Below are positions 981 to 33,938 of a stretch of DNA of 64,000 nucleotides, piece after piece (positions within the stretch are counted from its first letter, which is position 1; the number at the start of each line of letters is the position of its first letter). Origin of the DNA: Lachnospiraceae bacterium (GTDB lineage: Bacteria > Bacillota > Clostridia > Lachnospirales > Lachnospiraceae); assembly GCA_017934175.1 (NCBI GenBank), contig JAGBKB010000002.1:11060-75059 (forward strand), written 5' to 3'. The translations under genes were made by a program, and so were the position numbers. A model generated the notes under the pieces. The model did not search any database, was not told the origin of the DNA, and was given only the letters and a program-made list of their open reading frames with translations.

Positions 981-1012
981 AAAAAAACTCTCCATAGCGG
1001 AGAGTATTTCAT
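981..1012. terminator. Bidirectional hairpin between convergent lysR-like and mnmA genes
   Basis: CTCTCC(988-993)/GGAGAG(999-1004) stem, with an A-run upstream and T-rich sequence downstream. Confidence 0.55.
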
Positions 1013-1041
1013 TTATATAATATATTTGTTACTATAAAACT

Positions 1042-2130
1042 CTATGCAATTATCCCGCCACCAAGAACTATATCACCATCATAAAATACTGCTGATTGAC
1101 CTTTTGTTATTGCCTTTTGTTTCTCTTTAAATGTAACTTTTGCATTTTTATCATCAAGCATATGTATCTCTGCTTCTGATTCTTCTTTTCTATATCTTGG
1201 TTTTACTTTACATTTAAAAGCATTCTTAGGCACGACTTCACTTACAAAACTAACATCCGTCACAAACATTTCATCGCTATATAAATCTTCTTCTTTGCCG
1301 AGGGTAACTTCATTTTTATTCGCATCAATTTTTGTCACAAAATATTTTCCATCAAGTTCTATGCCAAGTTTTCTATGCTGACCTATGGTATAATTTATAA
1401 TTCCCTTATGTCTGCCAAGTACTTTCCCATCTTCGTTTACTATATTACCATCTTTAATCTCTTCAGTTGCATTGATTTTAATTACTTTTACATAATCGCC
1501 ATCTGGTACAAAACAAATATCTTGACTATCTTTTTTATCGGCATTTGTAAATCCATTTTCTTTTGCAATGTTTCTAATATTTACTTTTTCATAATCGCCA
1601 AGTGGAAAAAGCAAATGACTTAATTGATCTTGATTTAAAAAATACAAAACATAACTTTGGTCTTTTGTTTTGTCAATCGCTTTCTTCAACATATATTTTC
1701 CATTTACAAATTCAATCCTTGCATAATGACCTGTGACCACATAATCACAATTTAGTATTTTCATTCTCTCAAATAATTTGTCAAACTTCATATACTTGTT
1801 GCAATCTATACACGGATTTGGCGTGGCACCATTCATGTACTCACTTACAAATTTATTGATAACTTTTTCTTTAAATAAATCTTTAAAGTTAAATGTATAA
1901 TGCTTTACATTGTACTTATTACAAATACTTCTTGCATCAAGTACATCATCTACACTACAGCAAGTACGACTGTTACTCACACCTGCAGTTTCGTTATCAT
2001 ATAAATTCATAGTACAAGCAAGGCATTCAAAGCCATCATCAATAAGTAATTTTAATGCCACGCTTGAATCTATGCCACCACTCATCGCTACAAGAACTCT
2101 TTTGTTATTATTTACACTATCCATACACAT
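1042..2130 (-). CDS. mnmA: tRNA-specific 2-thiouridylase MnmA
   Basis: 362-aa ORF with PP-loop SGGIDSS and the conserved MnmA layout. The real start is probably the second ATG at 2124, 8 nt after TGgTATAAT (2141-2133). Confidence 0.93.
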   Translation of the reverse strand: MCMDSVNNNKRVLVAMSGGIDSSVALKLLIDDGFECLACTMNLYDNETAGVSNSRTCCSVDDVLDARSICNKYNVKHYTFNFKDLFKEKVINKFVSEYMNGATPNPCIDCNKYMKFDKLFERMKILNCDYVVTGHYARIEFVNGKYMLKKAIDKTKDQSYVLYFLNQDQLSHLLFPLGDYEKVNIRNIAKENGFTNADKKDSQDICFVPDGDYVKVIKINATEEIKDGNIVNEDGKVLGRHKGIINYTIGQHRKLGIELDGKYFVTKIDANKNEVTLGKEEDLYSDEMFVTDVSFVSEVVPKNAFKCKVKPRYRKEESEAEIHMLDDKNAKVTFKEKQKAITKGQSAVFYDGDIVLGGGIIA

Positions 2131-2178: not shown

Positions 2179-3069
2179 CTACTTTATTACCCCGCCCTCT
2201 ACCACAAGACTATTCTCATATTCAAGTCCATAAGTATCTACAAGTGTTGCTTCATAATCTTTATGGAAGAAGTTTTCTTGTCCAAGGCTCTTTATTTCAT
2301 TATTCAGCCAATTGAGTAAAGTTGTATTCCCTTTTGTAACTGCTGGTGCGATTGTATCATTGCTTCCAAGTGATGGTATACCTACAGTATAACCTTCATT
2401 TTGAAGAGAATATGCGATAACTTCGGTATTGTCATTTGCCCATGCAACAGCATTTCCATTTTCAAGTGCATTTTTTGCATTGGCATAAGTATCATATTTT
2501 TGTAGTTTGATTTCAGGATTATTTTGCATTAAGTATAGTTCTGCAGTTGTTCCTGAAATAACTATCACCTGTTCGTCTTTTCCAATTTGAGATAAATCTG
2601 TGATAACTTTGCTATTCGGAGATACAACACCAAGAGCAACATTCATATATGGTAATGCAAAATCAACTTTTTTCGCTCTGTCTTCCGTAACTGTAAAATT
2701 TGCAAGAATAATATCTACTTTTCCAGTTTCAAGATACTCAACTCTATTGGCTGCTTCTGTAGATACATAATTGATTCTAACACCTAAATCTTTTCCTATT
2801 CTCTCAGCAAAATAAACATCATAACCTTGGTATTTACCATATTCATCAACATACCCAAATGGATTTTTATCAGAAAATACTCCAATATTAATAGTTCCAC
2901 TTTCTTTAATTTGATCAAGAGTTCTATAAATTGTTGATGAGCTATTTGTAGAAGAATTTGCTTTGCTACTATTACCAGATGCCTTTCCTCCACAAGCAAT
3001 TAAAGATGTTCCCAATAAAATACTTAACCCTACTACGATACTTTTCTTAAAAAAAATTTCCTTTTTCAT
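2179..3069 (-). CDS. Polar amino-acid ABC transporter substrate-binding lipoprotein (cystine/cysteine-type suspected)
   Basis: 296-aa ORF with a lipoprotein signal (LIACGG) and SBP_bac_3-like sequence. Last gene of the ABC operon, which lies behind a Cys-rich leader. Confidence 0.85.
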   Translation of the reverse strand: MKKEIFFKKSIVVGLSILLGTSLIACGGKASGNSSKANSSTNSSSTIYRTLDQIKESGTINIGVFSDKNPFGYVDEYGKYQGYDVYFAERIGKDLGVRINYVSTEAANRVEYLETGKVDIILANFTVTEDRAKKVDFALPYMNVALGVVSPNSKVITDLSQIGKDEQVIVISGTTAELYLMQNNPEIKLQKYDTYANAKNALENGNAVAWANDNTEVIAYSLQNEGYTVGIPSLGSNDTIAPAVTKGNTTLLNWLNNEIKSLGQENFFHKDYEATLVDTYGLEYENSLVVEGGVIK

Positions 3070-3083
3070 AATTATTTTCTCCT

Positions 3084-3860
3084 TTATTTTCTTTTTTGTT
3101 TATAAGTAAAAGTGTCTAAAAATGCTTTAACTTTTTCCGACTTTGGTGATTCAAAAAAATCTTCTGGGCTTGTTGCTTCAATAATTGATCCTTCATCCAT
3201 AAACACAATTCTATCAGCAACCGCTCTAGCAAATAGCATTTCATGTGTCACTACAAGCATTGTCTTTCCCATATCAGCAAGCTCTAATATTACCTCTAAA
3301 ACTTCTCTTGTCATCTCAGGATCTAGAGAAGCTGTAACCTCATCAAAGAGTAGTATTTCTGGATTCATACATAATGCACGCACTATAGCAACTCTTTGTT
3401 TCTGGCCACCTGACAATTGACTTGGCATACTATATGCTTTCCCTTCTAAACCTACCCTCTTAAGCAATACCTTTGCATCTTCAATTACTTCCTTCTTTTT
3501 TCTTTTTTGAACTTTTATTGGTGCTAGAATAATATTATCTAACACATTTTTATGTGGAAATAATTCATAATTTTGAAATACCATTCCTATTTTTTGTCTT
3601 ATCTCTGACAAATTACTTTTCCTATTGGAAATTGTCTCTCCACACAATTTTATTTCTCCACCTTGGACATCTTCCAATAGGTTAATACATCGTAGAAGTG
3701 TGCTCTTCCCACACCCACTTGATCCAACTAATACCACAACTTCTCTTTTATGTAATTTTAAACTTAAATCTTTTATTGCAAAATTCTCATCATATTTCTT
3801 ATGTAAATGGGAAATTTCCAATATCACATCTTTTTTATTCTCATCTAACATTATTTCCAC
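3084..3860 (-). CDS. Polar amino-acid ABC transporter ATP-binding protein
   Basis: Walker A GSSGCGKST, signature LSGGQKQR, Walker B LLFDE. Confidence 0.92.
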   Translation of the reverse strand: MEIMLDENKKDVILEISHLHKKYDENFAIKDLSLKLHKREVVVLVGSSGCGKSTLLRCINLLEDVQGGEIKLCGETISNRKSNLSEIRQKIGMVFQNYELFPHKNVLDNIILAPIKVQKRKKKEVIEDAKVLLKRVGLEGKAYSMPSQLSGGQKQRVAIVRALCMNPEILLFDEVTASLDPEMTREVLEVILELADMGKTMLVVTHEMLFARAVADRIVFMDEGSIIEATSPEDFFESPKSEKVKAFLDTFTYKQKRK

Positions 3861-4555
3861 CTCTTTTCAAGTTTCATTGATAAAACACTTATAGGCCAAC
3901 ATATTAAAAAGTATAGAATAAAGACTACCAAATAAACACCAAATGCTGCATTCTTACTTAACATACGATTAGCCTCTATAATTTGCTGTGCCACTTTTAT
4001 CATTTCAACAACTCCAATCATAAGTACTAAACTTGTAGTTTTTATCATTCTTGTGATTAGATTTATTGATATCGGTATAATTCTTCTTAGCGATTGTGGT
4101 AAAATTACATAAATGAATGTCTGTAATCTACTTAAACCAAGTGCCTCGGCACTTTCATATTGATGATTTGAAACACTTGAAAGAGAGCCTCGAACGATTT
4201 CACCCATTTCTGCTATACCCCAAAGTGAGAAAACAATTATAGCTGATAGTTCTCCAGTCAAGTTAATTCTAAATACTCTTGTACTACCGAAATACACAAT
4301 AAACAATAATACTAATTGTGGCATGATTCTTATAAAGTCAATATAGATTCTTGACACAACTCTAACCGCTATGTTTTTCTTTTGTATCAATATTCCAAAA
4401 GCTAACCCTAATGCAACACTAATTGCTATAGAAATTAAACTTATTTTAAGTGTCACTAAAAGCCCGCCCATTAGTCTTAAGAAATTATGGCCTTTAAATA
4501 AAACATCAATTCCTAAGTCTTTCACATAACTAAACATACTTGATTTTCCTTTCAA
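3851..4555 (-). CDS. Amino-acid ABC transporter permease
   Basis: 234-aa multi-TM ORF of the His/Glu/Gln/Arg-type permease family. Overlaps its neighbours, consistent with an operon. Confidence 0.85.
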   Translation of the reverse strand: MKGKSSMFSYVKDLGIDVLFKGHNFLRLMGGLLVTLKISLISIAISVALGLAFGILIQKKNIAVRVVSRIYIDFIRIMPQLVLLFIVYFGSTRVFRINLTGELSAIIVFSLWGIAEMGEIVRGSLSSVSNHQYESAEALGLSRLQTFIYVILPQSLRRIIPISINLITRMIKTTSLVLMIGVVEMIKVAQQIIEANRMLSKNAAFGVYLVVFILYFLICWPISVLSMKLEKRWK

Positions 4556-5192
4556 TCAAAATTCCTATAATCGATACAGGTAATAATATAATTAAATAGA
4601 AAAGCACTAACATCAACAAAGCTTCAATGGTATTATAATATATTCCAATTAAATCTTTTGCAGTAAACATCAAATCCATTATACTAATTGCCGAAAATAC
4701 TGATGTCTCCTTTAATAAAAATATAATGTTGGCAATTATTCCATGTAGACTTACTCTTATTGCTTGTGGCATAATTATATATATTATTGTTTGTAACTTA
4801 CTAAATCCTAAACTGTAAGCACTCTCTTTTTGGATTACATCTATAGCCTCTATTCCGCTTCTGAAGGTCTCTGCCATATAACTACCTCCCAAAAATGCGA
4901 GTCCTAAAATTGCGCACATTTCTGCCTTAATCGAAATGCCAACTTTAGGAAGTCCATAATAAATAAAGAATAATTGAATAATTAGTGGTGTATTTCTACT
5001 TAATTCTATATAGAACTTGGTAATATTTCTAAGCACTGGCACTTGATAAAAAGTAATTATAGTTAATGCTAAGCCAATAATAATTGCAAATATTATCCCT
5101 ATAATTCCTATTTTAAGTGTTAATATTGCTGCCTCCTTATAGAGTGGAAGAAATTTTATAATAAATTCATAATCCATGCTACATTTACACAC
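4530..5192 (-). CDS. Amino-acid ABC transporter permease
   Basis: 220-aa multi-TM ORF, paralog of the adjacent permease. The likely true start is ATG at 5177 (MDYEF...). Confidence 0.85.
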   Translation of the reverse strand: MCKCSMDYEFIIKFLPLYKEAAILTLKIGIIGIIFAIIIGLALTIITFYQVPVLRNITKFYIELSRNTPLIIQLFFIYYGLPKVGISIKAEMCAILGLAFLGGSYMAETFRSGIEAIDVIQKESAYSLGFSKLQTIIYIIMPQAIRVSLHGIIANIIFLLKETSVFSAISIMDLMFTAKDLIGIYYNTIEALLMLVLFYLIILLPVSIIGILIERKIKYV

Positions 5193-5202
5193 CCTTTCAC
5201 AA

Positions 5203-5233
5203 TAAAAAATGCTACGGACTCATTTTCCGTAGC
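5203..5233 (-). terminator. Intrinsic terminator inside the 5' leader of the ABC operon (attenuator)
   Basis: Minus strand GCTACGG-AAAATGAGT-CCGTAGC followed by ATTTTTTATT. It lies between the promoter or leader ORF and the operon start. Confidence 0.75.
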
Positions 5234-5262
5234 ATTTAACAAATATTATTTATTACTTCTAA

Positions 5263-5346
5263 CTATTTTTTGTATGCACACGAAAAATGAATTGCTTTCA
5301 TGCAACATACACAACAACTATTTAAATTTGCATATACTTTTTTCAT
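5263..5346 (-). CDS. Putative Cys-rich leader peptide (27 aa) MKKVYANLNSCCVCCMKAIHFSCAYKK
   Basis: My own translation of the minus strand, ATG 5346 to TAG 5263. Cys codons at positions 11, 12, 14, 15 and 23. The 3' codons overlap the antiterminator strand. Confidence 0.6.
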   Translation of the reverse strand: MKKVYANLNSCCVCCMKAIHFSCAYKK

Positions 5347-5363
5347 GTGAATTACCTACAATT

Positions 5364-5391
5364 ATTATATCATTATATAAAATAATGGCAA
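5364..5391 (-). promoter_or_regulatory. SigA-type promoter of the Cys leader / ABC operon
   Basis: TTGCCA(5391-5386)-16 nt-TGaTATAAT(5372-5364), 17 nt upstream of the leader ATG. Confidence 0.55.
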
Positions 5392-5433
5392 TACTTTTTT
5401 TCTCATTTAGGTTATATGTTTTATAACAACTTA

Positions 5434-5462
5434 TTGGAAATTTATATAAACTATAGTATAAT
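5434..5462 (+). promoter_or_regulatory. SigA-type promoter abutting the ttcA-like start (leaderless candidate)
   Basis: TTGGAA(5434-5439)-17 nt-TATAAT(5457-5462), then 6 nt to ATG 5469. No SD sequence. Confidence 0.55.
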
Positions 5463-6635
5463 TTGTATATGATAAAAAACATTCAAAATATAGAGATATG
5501 TATAAATGACTTTATGAATATCAAAGACAACAATGATGTTGTGGTTATTGATATGCGAAGTGATATTGAAAGGTCATACGGCAATATAAAAAATAGCATT
5601 CATCTTGATGGTGAAAATCTCAAAAATGACCCACCTCACGATGCAAATAAAAACTACATTATCTGTTGCTCTCGCGGAAAAACAAGCTATGAAATAGCAA
5701 AAGAACTTAGAGACAGCGGATTTTCAAACTATTATAGTCTAAAAGGTGGATACTCATCTTATGTACTTTATTTGATTAGAAATGATAAACAAAATGAATC
5801 TAATACTATTCTTTTAGACAAAGTTGAAAAATCAATACAAACTAAATTTAGAACAAATCTTATGTCTAATTTTCTAAAAGCAATAAAAACCTATAAGTTA
5901 ATAAATGAAAATGATAAAATTGCTATCTGCATATCAGGTGGCAAGGATAGTTTTCTTATGGCTATGCTATTTAGAGAATTAAAAAAATGGTCTAAGATTA
6001 ATTTTGATGTAGAGTATATATCTATGGACCCAGGATATAACGAAACTAATAGAAAATTAATTGAAGAAAATGCTAAGGCACTTGATATACCAATTAAAAT
6101 ATTTGAATCTGATATATTTGATATTGTGTACAATGAAGAAAAATCCCCTTGCTATCTATGTGCAAGAATGAGAAGAGGGCACCTATATGCATATGCTAAA
6201 AAAATATCATGCAATAAAATAGCACTTGCACACCACTATGATGATGTTATAGAAACAATTCTTATGGGTATGCTCTATGGCGGGCAAATGCAGTCTATGC
6301 TTCCTAGATTAAAAAGCACTAACTTTCAAGGAATGGAACTCATACGTCCACTATATCTTATAAGGGAAGATGACATAATAAATTGGCGAGATTATAATGA
6401 TTTACATTTTTTGCAATGTGCTTGTAAATTTATAGACACTTGCACAACTTGTAATAACAATGAAAATGCATCTAAAAGACTTGAAGTAAAAAAGATTATA
6501 AAAACTCTTAAAGAGAAAAATCCATATATAGAAAGCAACATCTTTAGGAGTGCTGAAAATGCACAAGTTGATACTCTTCTTTCTTACAAAATAAAAGGAG
6601 TGAAACACTCCTTTCTTGAAAATTTTGATGATTAA
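5463..6635 (+). CDS. ttcA: Rhodanese domain fused to a TtcA-family PP-loop tRNA thiolation ATPase
   Basis: The N-terminal ~100 aa are rhodanese-like (active-site-like CCSRGKTS). The rest has PP-loop SGGKDS and the TtcA-type CYLCARMRRG motif. The probable start is ATG 5469. Confidence 0.75.
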   Translation: MYMIKNIQNIEICINDFMNIKDNNDVVVIDMRSDIERSYGNIKNSIHLDGENLKNDPPHDANKNYIICCSRGKTSYEIAKELRDSGFSNYYSLKGGYSSYVLYLIRNDKQNESNTILLDKVEKSIQTKFRTNLMSNFLKAIKTYKLINENDKIAICISGGKDSFLMAMLFRELKKWSKINFDVEYISMDPGYNETNRKLIEENAKALDIPIKIFESDIFDIVYNEEKSPCYLCARMRRGHLYAYAKKISCNKIALAHHYDDVIETILMGMLYGGQMQSMLPRLKSTNFQGMELIRPLYLIREDDIINWRDYNDLHFLQCACKFIDTCTTCNNNENASKRLEVKKIIKTLKEKNPYIESNIFRSAENAQVDTLLSYKIKGVKHSFLENFDD

Positions 6636-6763
6636 TTAATATTATTTAAATTTTATCATTAATTCTTTTCCAGCATTCCATGCTTGTCTGGCTCTTTTAC
6701 CAGTAATATACCACTTTAAAATTAGTCAAATATAGGTACATTAAATTCAAAGAAAGTGTCAAT

Positions 6764-6903
6764 AATGACATAAATTCACTGCAACGAAGGTATTGATACA
6801 ACAAAAAAAACGCTAATATAAAGTATATTAGCGATTTTGATTTTATTTTTATTTCTCATACTGCTACTTTTTTAAAAGATTTTGCATAAAATAATTTAAA
6901 ATT
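6764..6903. repeat. Direct repeat copy A (left flank of island 1)
   Basis: AATGACATAAATTCACTGCAAC plus a 71-nt block GATTTTGATTTTATTTTT...TTTGCATAAA...TTTAAAATT, repeated at 12659-12754. Copy A has a 47-nt insertion carrying a hairpin. Confidence 0.8.
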
Positions 6904-6940
6904 ACATATTTTTCAAAAAGGTGTAAAAAAAAGTGTATAC

Positions 6941-6960
6941 TTTCTCTTGACTGATGCAAT
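6941..6960. repeat. Conserved 20-24 bp motif TTTCTCTTGACT(A/G)ATGCAAT, copy 1
   Basis: Near-identical copies at 43798-43818 and 45868-45892. Confidence 0.8.
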
Positions 6961-7001
6961 ACAGAACTATACTATATACTATATACTTTTTCGAGGCGCC
7001 T

Positions 7002-8066
7002 TTATTTTAGCGCAACCCATATTATAGGTCTAACCCCTTTATTACCATCAACAGATGACGAGCAAACCTTACCGTCTTCATTAATATAATTATATACATT
7101 GGTTCCATTTGTAAATTTTAACCAATACTCACAAAACTCATTTGCGTCAATATGTTCTTTTACTTTAGGAGATTCAATCATTAGCTTATTAAAGAGTGCA
7201 TGCATGCTACATCTTGCTTTTAAATACAAAATGTTTCTATTATTAAAATATTTGTCTATATCATCAGTAGTTAATAACGAGCAATATTCTCCATGTTCAT
7301 TAGAAATAATTGCAGTTTTTTCTTTTGATGAAAATATCTTATTATAATAATTGTCGTTAATAAAATGTTGCAAGTCACTATCATTCCAATTCAAATTTGT
7401 GTCTACACTATCAATTTTTTTCCAATCTAGTATTTTGCTACTTAACAATAGTGCTTTTGAGTTCTCTTTATATAATACTCTCCACTCAAGACGAGTGTCT
7501 ATAGACATAATTTGATTATATTTTCCAAAAAGAATTGTATCATTCTTATCATCATCGTCTTGTATTAAGTGTTTAGGAATTGTTTTTTTGCTATTAATTA
7601 TTAACCTTAATCCTCTTTTACTATCAACATCTAACTCATTATACTCCGAAAATATATCTAATACTTCTTCTTCACTTGTTTCTTCATCATTTCCTTCTTC
7701 GTATTTATCGTACCAATTACCTCCTTCGTCGCCTCCATTTGTTGTAAAAGTATGTACATAATCAATTCTATTACCTTTGGTGTCATAAATAGTCATCACT
7801 TTTCGACCATCACCTATTTGCAAACACCATAATTTGCCCTCTTTATCAAAATTAACCTCTTTAATTCTAACATTAGCATAAACAATATCTAATTCTTCTT
7901 CACTTAACTTATCATAATCAGCATAAGTCCCATATTCCTGCATTTCTAACTGCTGATATAATTCTAAAAACTTATTATTCAAAAAATCAGAGTTTTTATT
8001 ATTACATGATATTATTAACAAAAATACAATTATCATAACTGCTATGATTTTAAATCTTTTTATCAT
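7002..8066 (-). CDS. Lipoprotein with DUF6273-like C-terminal domain
   Basis: 354-aa ORF with a signal peptide and Cys (LIISCNN). The C-terminus ...NKGVRPIIWVALK is paralogous to the ORF at 43829-44668 (...CGVRPAMWVSLE). Confidence 0.7.
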   Translation of the reverse strand: MIKRFKIIAVMIIVFLLIISCNNKNSDFLNNKFLELYQQLEMQEYGTYADYDKLSEEELDIVYANVRIKEVNFDKEGKLWCLQIGDGRKVMTIYDTKGNRIDYVHTFTTNGGDEGGNWYDKYEEGNDEETSEEEVLDIFSEYNELDVDSKRGLRLIINSKKTIPKHLIQDDDDKNDTILFGKYNQIMSIDTRLEWRVLYKENSKALLLSSKILDWKKIDSVDTNLNWNDSDLQHFINDNYYNKIFSSKEKTAIISNEHGEYCSLLTTDDIDKYFNNRNILYLKARCSMHALFNKLMIESPKVKEHIDANEFCEYWLKFTNGTNVYNYINEDGKVCSSSVDGNKGVRPIIWVALK

Positions 8067-14446: not shown

Positions 14447-14473
14447 AGGGGTTGCTTATAAAAAAGCAACCCC
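14447..14473. terminator. Hairpin between convergent hydG and metA
   Basis: GGGGTTGCTT / AAGCAACCCC 10-bp stem. The T-run is on the minus-strand side. Confidence 0.6.
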
Positions 14474-14506
14474 GTCACTAAATCTCCAAATTTTATTTTC
14501 TATCAC

Positions 14507-15430
14507 TTATGTGAGCCCTATACTCTCTATGTTATAAGGCGTCTCTTGATATACTATGTAATTTAACCAATTTGAATAAAATAGATTTGCATGAGCTCTC
14601 CATTTAACTATTATGTCATTTTTAGGATCGTCATTCACAAAATAGTTTTCAGGTACTTTTATAGGGAGGCCTTTACTTACATCTCTGTCATACTCATTTT
14701 TTAAGGTGTCTATATCATACTCCGAATGTCCAAATACAAATATCTTCTTGCCATTTTTTGTAAATACTATATTTACACCTGCCTTATCTGATTCTGCAAG
14801 TATTTTAAGTTCTGAAATTTTTTCTATGTCACTTTTCTTTACTGTAGTGTGCCTTGAATGAGGCACATAAAAAGCGTCATCAAAACCTCTAAGTAAGATT
14901 GCATTTTTATAAATTACTTTATGCTCAAAAATTCCAAATAATTTTTCATCAAGTTTATATTTTTTTATTCCATAATGATGATACAAACCGGCCTGAGCAC
15001 CCCAACAAATATGTAAAGTACTATATACATTTTTATTAGTCCAGTCCATTATCTCACACAGTTCATCCCAATAATCTACATCTTCAAATTCTAAATGCTC
15101 AACTGGTGCACCAGTGATTATGCATCCGTCATATTTATTATTTTTTATCTCATCAAATGACTTGTAAAAATTTTGAAGATGCTCTATACCTGTATTATGT
15201 GGGATATGACTCTTCGGAGCAAGTAATTCTAAATCTATTTGAAGAGGAGTATTGCCAAGAACTCTTGCAAACTGAGTTTCTGTTTGTATCTTGGTAGGCA
15301 TAAGATTTACGAGTAAAATTTTTAGCGGTCTTATGTCTTGAGTCTCAGCTCTTAATTTTGTCATTACAAATATATTTTCATTTTCAAGAATCTTTTTAGC
15401 TGGTAAATTATCTGGAATTTTAATTGGCAT
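14507..15430 (-). CDS. metA: Homoserine O-acyltransferase MetA
   Basis: 307-aa ORF with N-terminus [11 protein letters not shown]...[10 protein letters not shown], characteristic of MetA (HTS family). Confidence 0.92.
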
Positions 15431-15515
15431 AAATTTCTCCTAACTACATATATCTATTTTAAGGGCTCGCATAGCTCGCCCCTACAATTAGGCGGATGGT
15501 ATCTGCCCCCTACGA

Positions 15516-16790
15516 TTAAATGCTATCAAGCGCATTTTTTACATCTTCAAGTAAGTCGTCGCCATTTTCAATACCTACACTAAGTCTAACCATACCTGCT
15601 GATACACCTGCAGCAACTAATTGCTCATCAGTTAATTGTCTGTGAGTAGTTATAGATGGTGCGAGGCAACAACTTCTCGCATCAGCTACATGAGTTTCAA
15701 TAGCTATGAGTTTAAGTGTCTTCATAAATTTCTCTGCTGCTTCTCTTCCACCATTTAAATCAAAACTTATAACTCCACAAGTTCCATTTGGCAAATATTT
15801 CTCAATCAAATCATGATGTTCAAAACTCTTCAAGCCTGGATATTTAATTGATTTTACCTTATCACTCTTTTCAAGATACTCTGCCACCTTTTGTGCGTTT
15901 TTACAATGAGCTGGTATTCTCACATGTAAACTTTCTATGCCGAGGTTTAAATAAAAAGCATTTTGTGGGCTTTGGATAGAACCTAAGTCTCTCATAAGCT
16001 GCGCAGTAGCCTTAGTTATAAATGCACCCTCTTTTCCAAATGCTTCTGCATATACTAAACCATGATAACTATCATCTGGAGTTGTAAGTCCTGGAAATTT
16101 ATCCTTATGTGCCATCCAGTCAAATTTTCCAGAATCAACTATAGCACCACCAACTCCCACTCCGTGTCCATCAAGATATTTAGTAGTTGAATGAGTTACT
16201 ATATCTACACCAAATTCAATTGGTCTACAATTTATAGGAGTAGGGAAAGTATTGTCAACTATTACTGGAATTCCTGCTTCATGAGCTACCTTTACAAATT
16301 TTTCAAAATCAAATACGTCAAGAGATGGATTTGCAATGGTTTCACCAAATATTAATTTTGTATTTGGCCTAATGGCTTTTCTAATTGTATCTTCATCACT
16401 ATAAGGTGGTATAAATGTAGTTTCTATACCCATCTTTTTTAAAGTAACGGCAAATAAATTAAATGTACCACCATAGATAGCACTTGTACTTATCAAATGG
16501 TCTCCTGCATTACAGAGATTAAATACAGCGAAGAAGTTTGCTGCTTGACCTGATGATGTTAACATTCCTGCTACTCCACCTTCAAGTTCAGTTATTTTTT
16601 TTGCTACATAATCATTAGTTGGATTAGAAAGCCTTGTATAAAAATAGCCTGCGGCCTCTAAATTAAATAATTTCCCCATAAACTCACAAGTGTCAAACTT
16701 AAATGTAGTTGACTGAACTATAGGCACCTGCCTTGGCTCAGCATTTCCTGGTTTGTAACCACCCTGAATACAAATTGTTTCTTTTTTCAT
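15516..16790 (-). CDS. metY: O-acetylhomoserine sulfhydrylase (aminocarboxypropyltransferase) MetY
   Basis: 424-aa Cys/Met-metabolism PLP enzyme with the STTKYLDGHG PLP-lysine motif. AAGGAGG RBS. Confidence 0.9.
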   Translation of the reverse strand: MKKETICIQGGYKPGNAEPRQVPIVQSTTFKFDTCEFMGKLFNLEAAGYFYTRLSNPTNDYVAKKITELEGGVAGMLTSSGQAANFFAVFNLCNAGDHLISTSAIYGGTFNLFAVTLKKMGIETTFIPPYSDEDTIRKAIRPNTKLIFGETIANPSLDVFDFEKFVKVAHEAGIPVIVDNTFPTPINCRPIEFGVDIVTHSTTKYLDGHGVGVGGAIVDSGKFDWMAHKDKFPGLTTPDDSYHGLVYAEAFGKEGAFITKATAQLMRDLGSIQSPQNAFYLNLGIESLHVRIPAHCKNAQKVAEYLEKSDKVKSIKYPGLKSFEHHDLIEKYLPNGTCGVISFDLNGGREAAEKFMKTLKLIAIETHVADARSCCLAPSITTHRQLTDEQLVAAGVSAGMVRLSVGIENGDDLLEDVKNALDSI

Positions 16791-16810: not shown

Positions 16811-16841
16811 AAAAAATGCTACGGGTTTAATTTCCCGTAGC
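16811..16841 (-). terminator. Intrinsic terminator inside the metY-metA leader (attenuator)
   Basis: Minus strand GCTACGGG-AAATTAAA-CCCGTAGC followed by ATTTTTTAATT, about 20 nt upstream of the metY ATG. Confidence 0.75.
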
Positions 16842-16870
16842 ATTTTCAAAATAAGATTAATTTACCATTT

Positions 16871-16954
16871 TTATTTGCACACGGAAAATAGAGATGAATA
16901 ACACATCCCCATCATCATAGCTGCAAATTCATTTGTTTTATAAACGCTTTTCAT
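16871..16954 (-). CDS. Putative Met-rich leader peptide (27 aa) MKSVYKTNEFAAMMMGMCYSSLFSVCK
   Basis: My own translation of the minus strand, ATG 16954 to TAA 16871. ATG ATG ATG GGG ATG TGT at 16918-16901. The 3' codons overlap the antiterminator strand. Confidence 0.6.
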   Translation of the reverse strand: MKSVYKTNEFAAMMMGMCYSSLFSVCK

Positions 16955-16961
16955 ATTTAGA

Positions 16962-16990
16962 ATTATACCCTTTTTTACCATCTAATTCAA
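16962..16990 (-). promoter_or_regulatory. Promoter of the Met leader / metY-metA operon
   Basis: TTGAAT(16990-16985)-17 nt-TATAAT(16967-16962), then 7 nt to the leader ATG. No SD. Confidence 0.6.
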
Positions 16991-19322: not shown

Positions 19323-21770
19323 CTATTTAGCAATTCTTTCTTTTGGCTCTTCTTTATATTTATAACACTCTATTTCTTTTTTATCAAAATAAATATCTAT
19401 CTGCCCGCTCTCACCAGTTTTTAATATTTTAGAACCTGTGTTTAATATAGAATCAATAGTTTCTTGATTTGGGTGTCCATAGTTATTATTTTTCCCATAT
19501 GAAAATACTGAATACTTTGGGGATGCAATGCTAAAAAATTCTGGTAGATTAGAATTCTTCGAGCCGTGATGTGGAACTTTTAATACATCTACATCCATAT
19601 TGCATATTGCAAAATTATCTTTAAGCATTCTATTCATAGTTTTAAATCCTATGTCTCCTGTAAATAATGCCGAATGATTTTTATAGTCAAGTCTAAATGT
19701 AAGTGACATCTCATTTTGGTCTATCTTTTTTGACTTTAACTGTTCTTCGTTTGGACTTAATACTGTTATTGACAAGTTTTCTTTAAATGCTTTCACATCT
19801 TCTTCTTTCATATAATAAACATTTGTAGTAGCAGTATCAGCAGCAAGTCTTAACTTATCAAATTTCTTATCATTAATTGCAGTAATTGGCAAAATAAGAT
19901 TTCGTATTTTTAAATCTTCTTCATTTTCAAGCAAATAAATAATTCCATTAGTATGGTCTGCATCTGCATGAGTAATGTAGGCATAGTCTATATGGTCTAT
20001 AGCACGAGATTTTAAATGTGGAGACAAAATATATTGTCCATTACTTTTATTTGAAGTAGAGCCACCATCTATAGTTAGAATCAAATCTTTTGACTCTATT
20101 AAAATACTGTCACCTTGACCTATAGATAAAAAAGTCATACGCATATCACTGTGAATGCGAACTGAAACTATTAAAACCGAAAGTGCAAGTAAAATTATAC
20201 ATATGAAAATGCGAATAATATTTTGCAATATCAACAACATTGTTCTATTTTTTCTTAAAATAACAATATTATTTACTGCCCAGAAAATCAAAAATAATGC
20301 CACATAAAAATATAATATCTCATAAACTGTCGGGCGACCAAGTATCATAAGATGATGTGGCAACATCTCTACAAACTCACACAGTTTATCATAAATTAAA
20401 AATATTATATGAACAATAAAAACAATAATTTTACCAAGTTGTATATTTATAAAAGAAAATCCGAGGCCCACAAGACCAAAGCCAAGCACAAATGACATAA
20501 GTGGTATCACTATTAGATTTAACAATATGCTATAGAGTGGATAGGTAAAGTAATGATAAATTGTTATAGGAAATAAGAACAATGTGAGAATAATTACTGC
20601 AGGGACACGAGGGTTTTTAAAGTTTACCCCTCTTGCTTGCTTTTTAAACTTCTCTCCTGGCATTGATTTTGCATGAGTAATATCCAAAAGAGAAACATTT
20701 GCCCCAATACTAACTTTATGATTAAGTGCAAATATCGCAACATAAGAAAACTGAAATCCTGCATTAAATATTAGATATGGTCTCATCATTAAAAATATAA
20801 ATGCAATTATATAAAGTGTATTTTTTGAATCGTAAGTTCTACCAATAGACAGTGACAAAAATCTCACAAAAAGCATAGTTATTGCTCTAAGACTCGCGGC
20901 ACTTGCATCTATAAATATACCATACAGCATAATAAAAATTGTCACTAAACTTGCAGAGACATTGACAGATAATTTTTTTCTTAACAATTCAAAAAGTGCT
21001 ACACCAAGAATAGATAAATGAAGACCTGAAATAGCAAGTATATGTGCTATCCCATTATCAGAAAATTGTTTTCTTTGTTCTTTGTCTATGGTTGATTTAT
21101 CACCTGTAACCATAGCAGAAAATAATCCAGCATCTTTTTCATTAAATATTTTTTGTATTTGTGAATTAATAATTACTTTTATTTCATAAATCTTTTGGCG
21201 AAGTTTGTCATAGTTTGCATTTACTACTGTTATATCATTTGCATAAGTCATAAATGTAATGCCATCTGACCTATAAAATAATTTTTGATTGAACTCTCCC
21301 TCATTTGAAGGCTCATCTAAAATAGACACCCCACCGTGAACTTTTATATAATTACCAATCTTAACATCACTTGCAACATCATCACTAAAATAACATCTAC
21401 ATTTCCCTACTGTTAATCCATTTGCTATACAATCATTTAAAATAAAAAAATTGCTATTGGTACTTCGCCCCCTACTCTCTACTTTTCCTGTGATTGTTTT
21501 ATCGCCTCTTCCAAGACTTTCGATATTACTATTCCATGTGTCAAATGTTTTTTCCACATATTTAAATCTCAAAAAACCTAAAGCACCAATTACAATTATC
21601 AAAACAATGGTTCTTACATAAAGTTTGTTTTCAAAAAATAATTTTCCGTATAAAAAAATAGCAATAGTTAAAAGTATCAATAAAAACAATCTTGATACAA
21701 TCCCTGTTGCTATCAAAATGCCAATTATTTCTGCACATAAGAATAAAAATGCAGGTCGCCTAATTTTCAT
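19323..21770 (-). CDS. comEC: DNA internalization competence protein ComEC/Rec2
   Basis: 815-aa ORF with a multi-TM competence domain plus a C-terminal metallo-beta-lactamase fold (HADADH). Confidence 0.9.
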   Translation of the reverse strand: MKIRRPAFLFLCAEIIGILIATGIVSRLFLLILLTIAIFLYGKLFFENKLYVRTIVLIIVIGALGFLRFKYVEKTFDTWNSNIESLGRGDKTITGKVESRGRSTNSNFFILNDCIANGLTVGKCRCYFSDDVASDVKIGNYIKVHGGVSILDEPSNEGEFNQKLFYRSDGITFMTYANDITVVNANYDKLRQKIYEIKVIINSQIQKIFNEKDAGLFSAMVTGDKSTIDKEQRKQFSDNGIAHILAISGLHLSILGVALFELLRKKLSVNVSASLVTIFIMLYGIFIDASAASLRAITMLFVRFLSLSIGRTYDSKNTLYIIAFIFLMMRPYLIFNAGFQFSYVAIFALNHKVSIGANVSLLDITHAKSMPGEKFKKQARGVNFKNPRVPAVIILTLFLFPITIYHYFTYPLYSILLNLIVIPLMSFVLGFGLVGLGFSFINIQLGKIIVFIVHIIFLIYDKLCEFVEMLPHHLMILGRPTVYEILYFYVALFLIFWAVNNIVILRKNRTMLLILQNIIRIFICIILLALSVLIVSVRIHSDMRMTFLSIGQGDSILIESKDLILTIDGGSTSNKSNGQYILSPHLKSRAIDHIDYAYITHADADHTNGIIYLLENEEDLKIRNLILPITAINDKKFDKLRLAADTATTNVYYMKEEDVKAFKENLSITVLSPNEEQLKSKKIDQNEMSLTFRLDYKNHSALFTGDIGFKTMNRMLKDNFAICNMDVDVLKVPHHGSKNSNLPEFFSIASPKYSVFSYGKNNNYGHPNQETIDSILNTGSKILKTGESGQIDIYFDKKEIECYKYKEEPKERIAK

Positions 21771-22629
21771 CCACCTTTTTGTAAATTGCTGCTGCTACTG
21801 CCCCAGCACCGATATGGCAACCGATAACTGTAGACAATTCATCCATCACGACATTAGTGTCAAACACATCTGAAACTTCTGCTTTAAACTTTTCTGCTTC
21901 ATCTACGCACTCTGTATATGCTACCCCTATAACAAAATTATCAATGGGTTCACCTGGGAACATTGAGTTCATATCATTTAATACAAAGTTTAAAATAGAT
22001 TCTTCAGCCGCTTTAAGTCCTCTTGCCTTTTTAACCACTTCAAATTTATTTCCATTACTAAATAGAACTGGTTTTATATTTAAAATACTTCCAACAGTTG
22101 CTGAAAGTGCACTAACTCTTCCACCTTTTTTCAAATAATCAAGTGTATCAACTGCTATGTAGATACGATTATTTTTTGCATTTGCTTCAACTAATTCTTT
22201 GATTCTTTTTAAATCAATTCCTTTGTCAATAAGTCTTTTAACATCAGCAAGCATTCCACATTGCAAAACTGATATTGTTTTATGGTCGATTACTATTACT
22301 CTCTCTTTATATTTTTCATTATTATCTATAACTGGCAAAATACTTTCATAAGAACTTGATAAGCCACTTGTTATAGGAAGATAAACCACATAGTCATTTT
22401 CATTTAAAAGTCTATCAAATGCTTCTGTCACCAGTGGTATAGGTGCTTGAGATGTATGAATATCGCTACTCACTTTCAATTTTTCATAAAACTCTTTTTT
22501 AGTAAGTTTATCTTCATCATACTCTACTTCATCAAGCAAAAACGGAAGAGCAACCATTTCATACCCTAAAGTACTTGCCTCTTCTCTTGATAAACCACTA
22601 CTTGTATCTGTAAGTATCTTAATTTTCAT
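21760..22629 (-). CDS. DegV-family fatty-acid-binding protein
   Basis: 289-aa ORF with typical DegV sequence (MKIKILTDTSSGLS...). TTGTAA-17-TAATAT lies 7 nt upstream of the ATG. Confidence 0.88.
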   Translation of the reverse strand: MKIKILTDTSSGLSREEASTLGYEMVALPFLLDEVEYDEDKLTKKEFYEKLKVSSDIHTSQAPIPLVTEAFDRLLNENDYVVYLPITSGLSSSYESILPVIDNNEKYKERVIVIDHKTISVLQCGMLADVKRLIDKGIDLKRIKELVEANAKNNRIYIAVDTLDYLKKGGRVSALSATVGSILNIKPVLFSNGNKFEVVKKARGLKAAEESILNFVLNDMNSMFPGEPIDNFVIGVAYTECVDEAEKFKAEVSDVFDTNVVMDELSTVIGCHIGAGAVAAAIYKKVDEN

Positions 22630-31127: not shown

Positions 31128-32243
31128 CTATTCTGCTATATAAGGAGCAATAAGTTCATCTCTTGTGCATCCAATTACATTCTTTGCATAATTGTCAAGA
31201 TAGAAGAAATCTGCATTTTCTTTTGTAACTATAGATAATCCATTATCCATATAAGGAATTTGCCAGAAGTTTTCTCCTGCTGCTTTACGACCATTCATAG
31301 GACGAAGAACTTCATTGTGTTTTGCAAAATACAGATTAAGCATACCAAGATATCCTTGTAAGTATTGGTCTGGTGCTATAGCAAAGAAGAATTTATCTTC
31401 TTTTAATAAATCAAGAACTGTATCAGATGTATCACAGCAAGCAACTAATAATTTTTGCTCACCATTACCAAGTTCTATACCGGCTTGGGCTGCACCAGCC
31501 GCTGATGTTGCTTCAGGAGTAAATACTGCTGCTAAATCTGGATGTGCTTGTGCTACAGTTTTAACTGCTGCATTTGTCTTATCCTCATTTTGTCCAGAAA
31601 CTTCTTCTGCAACTACTTTTATATCAGGATAGTTGGCTTTTAAATATGCTATGAAAGAATCACATCTAATTTCGTGATTGCTTTGTCCTGGATTTCTCAT
31701 AACCATAACTTCGCCTTTGCCACCGAGTTTCTTAGCGATTTCTTCAGCCGCTCTATTTCCTTCTTTTGTATTATCAGAAGTTACATAGGCTCTTCTTACT
31801 GAATCAGGACTATCTGCTGCAAATGTTGCAATTTGAATACCCTTATCTGTTGCTCTCTTAATAGGGTCAACAAACACTTCTGCAACTGCAGGGTGAACTA
31901 AAATACCTGTTGGGTTAAGAGCGATTGTTTGCTCAAATGTCTCTGCTTGAGTTGTAGCATCATATGTTGGAGACCCATTGTAGTAAGCCGAAACTCCAAG
32001 TGCTCTTGCAGCATCTTTAAATCCTTGGAAGCATGGATACCAATACTCAATACCTACACCAGGAACATTCATGTAGTAAACTTCACCCTTAGCACCTTGT
32101 AATAAATAAGGGTTTGTTGAAGTTGCTGCAACTTGCTCTGTACTTGTTGCAGTTGTTTCAGTTGGTGCAACAACTTGACTTGTACAAGCAACCACATAGG
32201 CTGTTAAAACAATTGTTGCAATTAAGATTAATTTCTTTTTCAT
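31128..32243 (-). CDS. Sugar ABC transporter substrate-binding lipoprotein
   Basis: 371-aa ORF with a signal peptide and Cys (VVACTS), periplasmic-binding-protein type I-like. Confidence 0.8.
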   Translation of the reverse strand: MKKKLILIATIVLTAYVVACTSQVVAPTETTATSTEQVAATSTNPYLLQGAKGEVYYMNVPGVGIEYWYPCFQGFKDAARALGVSAYYNGSPTYDATTQAETFEQTIALNPTGILVHPAVAEVFVDPIKRATDKGIQIATFAADSPDSVRRAYVTSDNTKEGNRAAEEIAKKLGGKGEVMVMRNPGQSNHEIRCDSFIAYLKANYPDIKVVAEEVSGQNEDKTNAAVKTVAQAHPDLAAVFTPEATSAAGAAQAGIELGNGEQKLLVACCDTSDTVLDLLKEDKFFFAIAPDQYLQGYLGMLNLYFAKHNEVLRPMNGRKAAGENFWQIPYMDNGLSIVTKENADFFYLDNYAKNVIGCTRDELIAPYIAE

Positions 32244-33176: not shown

Positions 33177-33938
33177 TTATCTCATTAACATTCCACCAGT
33201 TAAATCAAGTGTAGTTCCTGTCATATAATCAGCCTGTGTAGAAAGTAAAAATACTACTGCCTTTGCTACATCATCTGTCTCTGCTATTCTTCTAACTGGT
33301 ATTCTTTCAAGATATGCATCTTTTCTCTTTGGGTCTTTTAACACTTCCTCTGTCATAGGGCTTCTCATGATACCTGGTGCTACAAGATTTACATTGATTC
33401 CATCTGGTGCAACTTCTCTTGCAAGCGAAATTGAAAATGTAACAAGTCCTGCCTTTGATGCAGCATAATGAGCATGTCCAGAAGTTGAACCATGAAATGC
33501 TGCTTGAGATGTGACATTTACAATTTTCCCTTTAATCTTATTTTTAAGCCAATATTTAACTAATTCTCTATTTAATATAAATGCACCAGTTAAATTAAGT
33601 TGCATTGTTTTATTCCAACTCTCTTCAGTAATCTCTATAACTTGTCCAGTTGGCCATATAGCAACTGAATTTGAAAATAATTCAACTGAACCTAGTTCTT
33701 TGATTGACTCTTCTACAAGATTTATATCACTCGCTTCATTTGATACATCCGTTTTAATAAATATTATTTTTTGATTTGGGAATTCTTTTTTCAGTGCATC
33801 AAATTTTTCCTCAGGTGCAACCATATCACCTATTGCTACATTTGCACCTTCTTGTAAAAGCATTTTGGCAATAGAATATCCAAGGCCACCAAAGCCTCCT
33901 ACAACTATCGCATTTTTCCCTTTTATACCGTAATCCAT
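33177..33938 (-). CDS. SDR-family oxidoreductase
   Basis: 253-aa ORF with the GGFGGLG cofactor motif and YAASK catalytic motif. Confidence 0.88.
   Translation of the reverse strand: MDYGIKGKNAIVVGGFGGLGYSIAKMLLQEGANVAIGDMVAPEEKFDALKKEFPNQKIIFIKTDVSNEASDINLVEESIKELGSVELFSNSVAIWPTGQVIEITEESWNKTMQLNLTGAFILNRELVKYWLKNKIKGKIVNVTSQAAFHGSTSGHAHYAASKAGLVTFSISLAREVAPDGINVNLVAPGIMRSPMTEEVLKDPKRKDAYLERIPVRRIAETDDVAKAVVFLLSTQADYMTGTTLDLTGGMLMR

Follow-up and report, generated by a model that had tools for sequence, protein, structure and literature searches.

An amino-acid ABC transporter operon in a 64,000-nt stretch of Lachnospiraceae DNA (hereafter the window; contig JAGBKB010000002.1, positions 11,060 to 75,059) is preceded by a leader rich in cysteine codons that, judged from its sequence, is very likely a ribosome-mediated (leader-peptide) transcription attenuator sensing charged tRNA-Cys. 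A preliminary description had proposed this reading, and support for it now comes from anatomy, from conservation and covariation, from gene function and from a natural exchange of codons between two leaders. The leader is a full four-region attenuator with helices 1:2, 2:3, and 3:4, and the window holds the features of that class: a short open reading frame (ORF) with start signals, a Cys codon cluster, a terminator, an antiterminator, a 1:2 pairing, and genes of the same pathway. All elements were read on the minus strand, and promoter and terminator scans covered window positions 4900-5800. The elements are:

5364-5391, minus strand: promoter, with a -35 box TTGCCA (5391-5386), a 16-nt spacer and an extended -10 element TGATATAAT (5372-5364).
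5354-5357, minus strand: Shine-Dalgarno-like AGGU, weak, 7 nt 5′ of the leader ATG.
5263-5346, minus strand: leader ORF of 27 codons plus TAG (ATG at 5346, TAG at 5265-5263), encoding the peptide MKKVYANLNSCCVCCMKAIHFSCAYKK.
5302-5316, minus strand: regulatory Cys run CCVCC, read from UGU UGU GUA UGU UGC, with Cys at codons 11, 12, 14, and 15.
5295-5311, minus strand: region 1, the 5′ strand of the 1:2 anti-antiterminator hairpin, overlapping Cys codons 12, 14, and 15 and the two codons that follow.
5268-5291, minus strand: region 2, the switching strand, with region 1 or region 3 as alternative partners.
5219-5244, minus strand: region 3, the antiterminator partner of region 2, which takes in the entire 5′ arm of the terminator and part of its loop.
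5201-5237, minus strand: intrinsic terminator (regions 3:4), with a 12-bp stem (5237-5207, AAAUGCUACGG/CCGUAGCAUUU), a 7-nt loop and a U-run.

The signals at both ends of the leader stand out from their surroundings. The promoter agrees with the consensus at 11/12 positions, carries the TG motif in addition and is the top promoter-like site in the scanned interval. The ORF begins 17 nt past the -10 box, and the 5′ untranslated region (UTR) is expected to be only ~10 nt long, with the transcription start deduced from the -10 position. A fifth Cys lies at codon 23 of the peptide, and a Met directly follows the Cys run. At the other end, the hairpin GCTACGG-N9-CCGTAGC grows to 12 bp with a T-run directly after it; it is the sole terminator-like site in the interval (shuffles give 0.1 expected), and 29 nt separate it from the ATG of the first permease gene (5177). 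That ATG stands 13-14 nt past an AAAGGG(G/A) Shine-Dalgarno-like motif, an unusually long spacing that is kept in relatives (window 5177-5197; locus L081, 1848-1874; locus L083, 1669-1695).

Folding supports a choice between two structures. The minimum-energy fold of the leader is -39.6 kcal/mol (z = -3.7), and 0/200 shuffles are equally stable. Region 2 can pair with region 1 (5311-5295 with 5286-5271; 16 pairs, -14.4 kcal/mol) or with region 3. The core of the latter antiterminator, CATTTTTCGTG (5289-5279) with TACGGAAAATG (5231-5221), spans 11 bp with two G-U pairs, and the full helix, 5291-5268 with 5244-5219, is ~21 bp long. The preliminary description gave the 11-bp core exactly and understated the extent of the antiterminator; its promoter, 27-codon Cys ORF and terminator likewise proved exact to the coordinate when the minus strand was re-read. 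The 1:2 hairpin, the longer antiterminator and a paralogous element at 16990-16812 are new here. The 2:3 duplex has an energy of -20.2 kcal/mol (z = -5.6, reached by 0/200 shuffles; the terminator, for comparison, has -15.9 kcal/mol) and sequesters 12/12 nt of the terminator's 5′ arm. When the nascent transcript is folded with the 3′ arm not yet made, 10/12 arm nucleotides are paired upstream. Counted from the first base of the final Cys codon, region 2 starts 13 nt on, and its end lies 3 nt short of the stop codon, a spacing that would fit a ribosome footprint of ~13 nt (an assumed value).

We infer transcription start, ORF translation, stalling, and regulated termination, and propose that they are linked as follows. 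Transcription would begin ~10 nt 5′ of the 27-codon ORF. With Cys-tRNA plentiful, the ribosome would pass the four Cys codons and reach the stop codon. There it would cover region 2 in its 3′ half, or else regions 1 and 2 would pair again behind it; regions 3:4 would then form the terminator, and RNA polymerase would halt at the U-run, short of the operon. If the ORF were not translated, hairpins 1:2 and 3:4 would form, again with termination as the outcome. With Cys-tRNA scarce, the ribosome would stall on the Cys codons, melt region 1 and free region 2, which, starting 13 nt past the last Cys codon, would stay exposed beyond a stalled ribosome. Region 2 would pair with region 3 once the latter was transcribed, the 5′ arm of the terminator would be wholly sequestered, and polymerase would read into the genes of a CjaA-type cysteine ABC importer and perhaps mnmA. 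One step of the logic first proposed needs amending. A ribosome at the stop codon was thought to block the antiterminator strand, and it would do so in part: the strand reaches to 3 nt before the stop codon, so the terminating ribosome would cover its 3′ half and leave the 11-nt core uncovered.

The strongest argument for attenuation by a leader peptide is an exchange of Cys for Met codons on one scaffold. A profile (nhmmer) of six Cys leaders of the AT-rich sequence type found in the window's clade matches a second site in the window, 16892-16811 on the minus strand (E = 9e-11), which lies within the following elements:

16812-16990, minus strand: paralogous Met-codon attenuator on the same scaffold, ~11 kb from the Cys leader.
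16990-16962, minus strand: promoter of the Met leader.
16954-16871, minus strand: Met-leader ORF of 27 codons, encoding the peptide MKSVYKTNEFAAMMMGMCYSSLFSVCK.
16918-16904, minus strand: Met run MMMGM, Met codons 13, 14, 15, and 17.
16890-16865 and 16853-16829, minus strand: regions 2 and 3 of the Met leader, which form its 2:3 duplex.
16847-16812, minus strand: intrinsic terminator of 14 bp.
14448-16790, minus strand: the operon 3′ of this attenuator, with metY (16790-15516), metA (15430-14507), and a terminator (14473-14448).

The two ORFs are equal in length and share an MK.VY start, and the Met leader has a Cys directly after its Met run and no Cys cluster. Its Met codons pair with region 2 in a 1:2 hairpin (fold z = -4.9), and its 2:3 duplex has an energy of -16.0 kcal/mol (z = -3.2). 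Both downstream genes are identified by family models (metY, TIGR01326, 563 bits with a cut-off of 495; metA, NF047918, 501 bits with a cut-off of 460.5). In three related loci (L095-L097), genes for MetY homologues 92, 87, and 80% identical are preceded by MNNRFATILFELAHMMMWMKHHYFSCANLS, MMKIFGTSLFADMMMEMCCHLFFPCADKY, and MKNLFETIAKMLYYMYMMMQPRPHYFSCAIVK, respectively. In each case region 2 and the terminator recur, and metY and a gene of the HTS family (metA-type) come next. In a set of four Cys plus four Met leaders, pairing reaches 92.5% in the antiterminator core and 95.8% in the terminator. One scaffold thus carries two codon runs that match their downstream pathways, which indicates that the specificity resides in the codons as read by the ribosome and speaks against a shared ligand-binding RNA.

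This swap bears directly on the possibility that the conserved RNA flips the same antiterminator and terminator as a riboswitch yet to be described or as an RNA-binding protein's target, with the short ORF incidental or modulatory. Such a switch would account for the near-invariance of regions 2-4 in Cys and Met leaders alike, at 10-20% difference between the proteins of the species concerned, and for an additional conserved internal hairpin (GGUGC...GCGCC) in the leaders of a second, GC-rich sequence type found at distant loci. We nevertheless consider it highly improbable. The codon run is the sole element that changes with the downstream pathway (Cys before the importer and cysK, Met before metY-metA), and a shared aptamer could not yield two specificities. 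Start codon, frame, and stop are kept in all members, with a strong Shine-Dalgarno sequence in distant loci, and ORF and terminator together leave only ~55 nt of the window leader. There is also no match in Rfam: a scan of the 64-kb window and 34 related loci with Rfam 15 at gathering score gave no leader, T-box, SAM or riboswitch match, only tRNAs and one TwoAYGGAY RNA, and 17 related leaders were without a match. Over 5100-5500, relaxing the threshold to E<=10 gave only noise (for example PyrG_leader at 19 bits, with a cut-off of 65) and no T-box (RF00230), so that the lack of S-box and T-box hallmarks, first judged from the sequence, stands. The TwoAYGGAY RNA (RF01731, 95 bits; L059, 140-302, minus strand) lies ~2.5 kb 5′ of the Cys leader of its locus.

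Leaders with Cys runs recur at the homologous position across many genomes. A scan of one genome per species gave 80 loci, and closer relatives were reached through homologues of the binding protein. All 80 loci hold the orthologous four-gene operon (binding protein 64-100% identical) in one of two gene orders, permease-first or binding-protein-first, and 27/80 operons, in both gene orders, have a leader in which a Shine-Dalgarno-led short ORF with a Cys run goes with an antiterminator and a terminator. At 25 loci this ORF stands directly 5′ of whichever operon gene leads, and a GC-rich terminator follows it in 24/25 (it is decayed in L040). The runs hold 2 to 7 Cys, as in MCCCCRLL, MMCCCCCCNAK, MCCRMLYSRAY, KCCCCTIFF, and NMCCCRMLF, and distant loci (61-70% identical) have an AAGGAGG-type Shine-Dalgarno sequence 5′ of the ORF. 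The records name Lachnospiraceae, Roseburia, Faecalibacterium, Lawsonibacter, Anaerotignum, Saccharofermentans, Hungatella, Oscillospiraceae, and metagenome-assembled Clostridia. In L030 and L039 the Cys-run ORF precedes a metY-like gene that heads the same ABC operon. The L039 leader (2405-2590; MTGFYTLKVNTVMCCRMRNSRAYYMAG..., of the GC-rich type) lies on the chromosome of a cultured type strain with a complete genome, Hungatella hathewayi DSM 13479 (NZ_CP102274.1), before the metY-like gene and the cysteine ABC operon. That of L030 (1261-1450) is a mixed Met/Cys leader, MMNTVEMCMCCCMC, before metY, a metE-like gene, and the ABC operon, and in L055 (8219-8390) an LCMNMCMCRM leader precedes a gene starting MEIKMAKNILFKHYDAEDY.

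Under strict criteria (3 Cys in 5 residues, an ATG start, <=60 codons, position within 350 nt before the operon), 20 loci carry such an ORF against 1.19 expected from the background elsewhere in the same loci (Poisson P = 4e-18, a value that overstates independence because several loci are close relatives). The simplest alternative, a chance ORF in an AT-rich leader followed by a constitutive partial terminator, could draw on the commonness of short ORFs in AT-rich DNA and on three more Cys-cluster short ORFs that passed the filter elsewhere in the window (21718-21873, 31542-31643, and 33492-33563, plus strand). The profile of the scaffold does not match these three, which are probably in alternative frames of genes. 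We give chance practically no weight: it is opposed by the excess of ORFs at the homologous position, by an arrangement kept across two gene orders and two unrelated sequence types, and by the shuffle controls of the fold and of the 2:3 duplex.

The RNA helices are conserved within each sequence type. The Cys-leader ORF of the AT-rich type is kept, with variation, in L001, L002, L091, L092, L081, and L083. L081 (85% identical) and L083 (82% identical) encode the peptides MKNSFAKFNACCCCCSCAVYFSCAD and MKNSFAKVCFCCCCCCMSAIYFSCANK, and in both, region 2 reads UAUUUUUCGUG and region 3 reads UACGAAAAAUA, which amounts to a C-G to U-A exchange when set against the window. Among the six AT-rich Cys leaders, 93.5% of cells in the antiterminator core are paired against 39-49% when the partner is slid (all 23 pairs); the corresponding ranges for the AT-rich clade overall are 92-94% and 39-56%. 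Pairing reaches 97% of cells in the terminator, which also shows a G-C to A-U change, and 89% in region 1:2. In the GC-rich leaders, the ORF contains CUCCCGGGCA..AUGGC, whose reverse complement GCCAUUUGCCCGGGAG is the 5′ arm of the terminator, and RNAalifold, applied to ten such leaders cut before the 3′ arm of the terminator, returns exactly this 15-bp antiterminator, in which 5/15 pairs have changes on both sides. The 2:3 duplex is more stable than shuffles in most GC-rich loci. A profile of the GC-rich leaders (type A) does not detect the window leader, so that only a common architecture of the two types, and not their homology, is demonstrable.

Selection appears to act on the codons of the run. 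Comparison of orthologous leaders shows the Cys run kept while the rest of the peptide diverges, and the stems kept with compensatory changes, as the attenuator reading first put forward would have it. The run is the sole peptide feature common to both sequence types, the remaining peptide and the nucleotide sequence having diverged, and Cys is kept while UGU and UGC alternate freely within runs. These constraints also bear on the possibility that the product of the ORF is itself functional, as a Cys-rich micropeptide (a precursor peptide, or one that is metal- or redox-binding), and that the hairpin is an ordinary terminator or stability element. Cys-rich small proteins do exist, and the ORF is conserved together with its translation signals. 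Yet the peptide is unconserved outside the Cys run and the residues that region 2 encodes, its length ranges from 23 to 45 residues, and the leader peptides match nothing in Pfam or NCBIfam. A terminator between gene and operon, with a competing helix that starts in the ORF, would be unexpected for a peptide gene, and the Met-run twin does without a Cys cluster. We put the chance of a micropeptide as very slight indeed.

Codon choice within the runs is biased. Leader Cys codons (L003-L079) are UGU or UGC in a ratio of 72:34, against 54:101 in the adjacent operon genes (odds ratio 4, P = 2e-7), with the bias toward UGU persisting even at a genomic G+C content of ~60%. Favoring UGU, the less-used codon and the one read by wobble, would sharpen stalling; an alternative reason for the bias is conservation of the AUGUGUUGU motif.

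Whether the codon run reports cysteine alone is a separate question. The attenuator could read Cys and Met jointly, or general translation speed. Within 3 codons of the Cys run, 28% of the non-Cys residues of GC-rich leaders are Met, a share that falls to 6% in the rest of the leader, and mixed runs such as MCMCCCMC and CMNMCMC occur; in the window, a Met stands right after the Cys run of one leader and a Cys right after the Met run of the other. GC-rich leaders may therefore read both sulfur amino acids, or their AUGs may serve pairing or initiation. Against joint readout, the window's clade is cleanly split between leaders with 4-7 Cys and <=1 Met and leaders with 4 Met and 0-2 Cys, and the flanking AUGs may serve RNA pairing or act as spare start codons. 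On this evidence we think a joint or general readout unlikely, and favor a leader in the window that senses cysteine.

The same Cys leader also stands before a second cysteine gene. A metagenome pattern scan for ATTTTTCGTGTGC-N25-55-AATGCTAC found 6 stretches, 2 of them real leaders: L091, from the window's own species, and L092. The other 4 were rejected as coding or repeat sequence. The L092 leader (1369-1511, minus strand) encodes MKDVYTKFNTCCVCCMKAIHFSCAYKK, has the same helices, and is nearly identical to the window leader, with AGGUGA where the window has AGGU; in both leaders the ATG stands 17 nt past the -10 hexamer, and both have an AGGU(A/G)A motif. The gene 3′ of it (379-1320) is cysK (TIGR01139, 435 bits with a cut-off of 351), which takes the place of the ABC operon. 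The Cys leader element appears modular.

Several leaders of the window's clade place their start codon close to the promoter. The ATG of L081, of L083, and of each of the four Met leaders is 6-9 nt past the -10 hexamer, so these ORFs are probably leaderless. The spacing is found beyond the attenuators too, in a rhodanese/TtcA-like gene (ATG at 5469; window 5457-5471, plus strand) whose ATG is 6-7 nt past TATAAT, as at L081 1679-1694, L083 1501-1515, and window 16952-16967. This pattern suggests that leaderless mRNAs are frequent in the clade.

The genes that the Cys leader precedes point to cysteine independently of the leader, from which alone their specificity was first taken. They and the gene that follows are:

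2179-5177, minus strand: regulated ABC operon, with permeases at 5177-4530 and 4555-3851, an ATPase at 3860-3084, and a binding protein at 3069-2179.
987-2130, minus strand: mnmA (tRNA 2-thiouridylase, 2130-1042), 3′ of the ABC operon, and the next terminator-like site (1005-987).

The products carry the domains of two BPD_transp_1 permeases, an ABC ATPase, and an SBP_bac_3 binding protein. Compared with the Protein Data Bank (PDB), the binding protein matches 2YJP (1e-69) and 1XT8 (1.5e-65), the next match being at 1e-36; 1XT8 we take to be CjaA, the Campylobacter jejuni receptor of a 2005 structure paper. The entry 2YJP corresponds to NGO2014, which in Neisseria gonorrhoeae is the receptor for L-cysteine (PMC7170509), and CjaA is a high-affinity cysteine-binding protein with a Kd of 0.5 uM (PMC9040844). 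This homology to NGO2014 and CjaA supports cysteine specificity, as does cysK in L092, and the operon is probably an L-cysteine ABC importer of the CjaA/NGO2014 type. On the minus strand from 5207 to 1005 no terminator-like site was found, and mnmA is possibly co-transcribed with the importer operon; a TGgTATAAT motif 5′ of mnmA allows it a promoter of its own. The importer operon repeatedly adjoins tRNA thiolation genes, with mnmA downstream or divergent and a rhodanese-TtcA fusion nearby (window 1042-2130 and 5463-6635; L030, L061, L086, L024/L045, and L044/L049/L062). These enzymes consume cysteine-derived sulfur.

The leader is not found before every copy of the operon. No Cys-run ORF precedes it in 53/80 loci (in 2 of the 53, the upstream sequence is too short to judge), and 17 of these leader-free loci, scanned with Rfam, have no T-box and no S-box. 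Three loci fetched by protein look-up (L084, L085, and L098) also have no leader. L084 has a LysR gene upstream (821-1747), L085 an Rrf2 gene (605-1048) with NifU, cysteine desulfurase, and SufBD neighbors (4481-7870), and L098 no notable upstream gene. Operons without the leader are probably under protein regulators instead of an attenuator.

A number of observations weigh against attenuation by a leader peptide. The leader is present in only ~1/3 of orthologous operons, some of the others adjoining Rrf2 or LysR genes, which makes it dispensable. In the window itself the Shine-Dalgarno sequence is weak and the 5′ UTR, as deduced, very short. Full-length thermodynamic folds with a ribosome mask still favor the terminator in the window leader, and the same masked folds switch several GC-rich leaders to the antiterminator; any switch in the window thus has to be kinetic, like that of the classical attenuators. 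Only about half of region 2, the 3′ half, is covered by a ribosome at the stop codon, and if stalling occurs at the first two Cys codons, some of region 1 stays able to compete. Covariation in the AT-rich type is thin, at only 2-3 pairs, because the scaffold hardly varies, and an unknown factor that binds regions 2-4 could also explain their strong conservation. Kinship among the loci is left out of account in the shuffle and Poisson statistics. Lastly, the case is built on sequence and folding.

Together, our results lead us to lean, with modest confidence, toward regarding the element as one member of a widespread and so far undescribed family of leader-peptide attenuators for sulfur amino acids in gut Clostridia. 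In the window's clade, this family would reuse one scaffold with an exchanged codon run, Cys before the CjaA-type importer and cysK and Met before metY-metA, with many copies leaderless and UGU preferred. T-box and S-box RNAs are the textbook control of sulfur amino acid genes in Firmicutes, where amino-acid leader peptides are rare. A Cys leader and a Met twin common in abundant human-gut Clostridia would alter this picture and would add two models absent from Rfam. The leader would also be regulatory evidence that the CjaA/NGO2014-type ABC system is an importer induced by cysteine starvation in anaerobes, for an amino acid that one recent paper describes as having the least-understood transport. 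The natural Cys/Met swap on one scaffold offers a ready-made experiment on how attenuators gain new specificity, and the copy in H. hathewayi DSM 13479 makes the hypothesis testable in a cultured strain.

The mechanism proposed for the Cys leader is of a known kind, that of trp, his, and leu. In the full-text literature searched (most subscription journals lying outside it), Cys leaders turned up only for Actinobacteria and Rhodobacterales; no description of a Cys or Met leader of Clostridia was found there, in Rfam or in NCBIfam, and no paper joins methionine codons, leader peptide, attenuation, and terminator. The Met leader would be the first methionine-codon transcription attenuator, as far as this literature shows.

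Among known systems, T-boxes (with a tRNA-Cys specifier) and S-box/SAM RNAs resemble the window leader in choosing between terminator and antiterminator in the leaders of Cys and Met genes, and T-boxes also read tRNA charging. They differ in binding tRNA or SAM directly, through large conserved RNA folds and without translation. Closer in principle are the leaderless polycysteine short ORFs of mycobacteria, predicted in Seliverstov et al. 2005 (PMC1262725), which sense cysteine by ribosome stalling (Canestrari et al. 2020, bioRxiv 10.1101/834739). These elements act on translation, in that the stalled ribosome unmasks the following gene's ribosome-binding site, and they have no intrinsic terminator. 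Both systems place a run of Cys codons in an upstream short ORF and use the device at several cysteine loci, and L081, L083, and the Met leaders are probably leaderless too. In contrast, the window ORF starts 17 nt past the -10 box and is followed by a canonical terminator and antiterminator, which places it outside the mycobacterial class, and it is unrelated to the mycobacterial elements in sequence and phylum.

The uORFC-8-2 motif 5′ of cysS in Rhodobacterales, a predicted ribosome-mediated attenuator (Brewer et al. 2021, PMC8632094), likewise has tandem Cys codons inside its first stem and a terminator stem with a U-run. It belongs to Alphaproteobacteria, has the cysteinyl-tRNA synthetase gene as its target, contains only two Cys codons in another sequence and, like the window leader, is a prediction. 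Within Firmicutes, a His leader peptide lies 5′ of a hisS paralogue/hisZ in bacilli, where it replaces a T-box; it was called the first there, leader peptides being known, apart from this one, only in Proteobacteria and Actinobacteria (Naville and Gautheret 2010, PMC2965389). It too is a regular amino-acid leader peptide in Firmicutes, but for another amino acid, other genes, and another class, Bacilli. Compared with the enterobacterial trp, his, leu, thr, pheA, and ilv attenuators, the window leader uses Cys, occurs in Lachnospiraceae (Clostridia), precedes an importer (in relatives, cysK or metY) and not a whole biosynthetic operon, and has neither sequence similarity to them nor a match to an Rfam leader family. 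Its design is nevertheless theirs: a short ORF close to the promoter in which codons of the regulating amino acid form a run, helices 1:2, 2:3, and 3:4, a terminator just 5′ of the operon, and read-through when the ribosome stalls.

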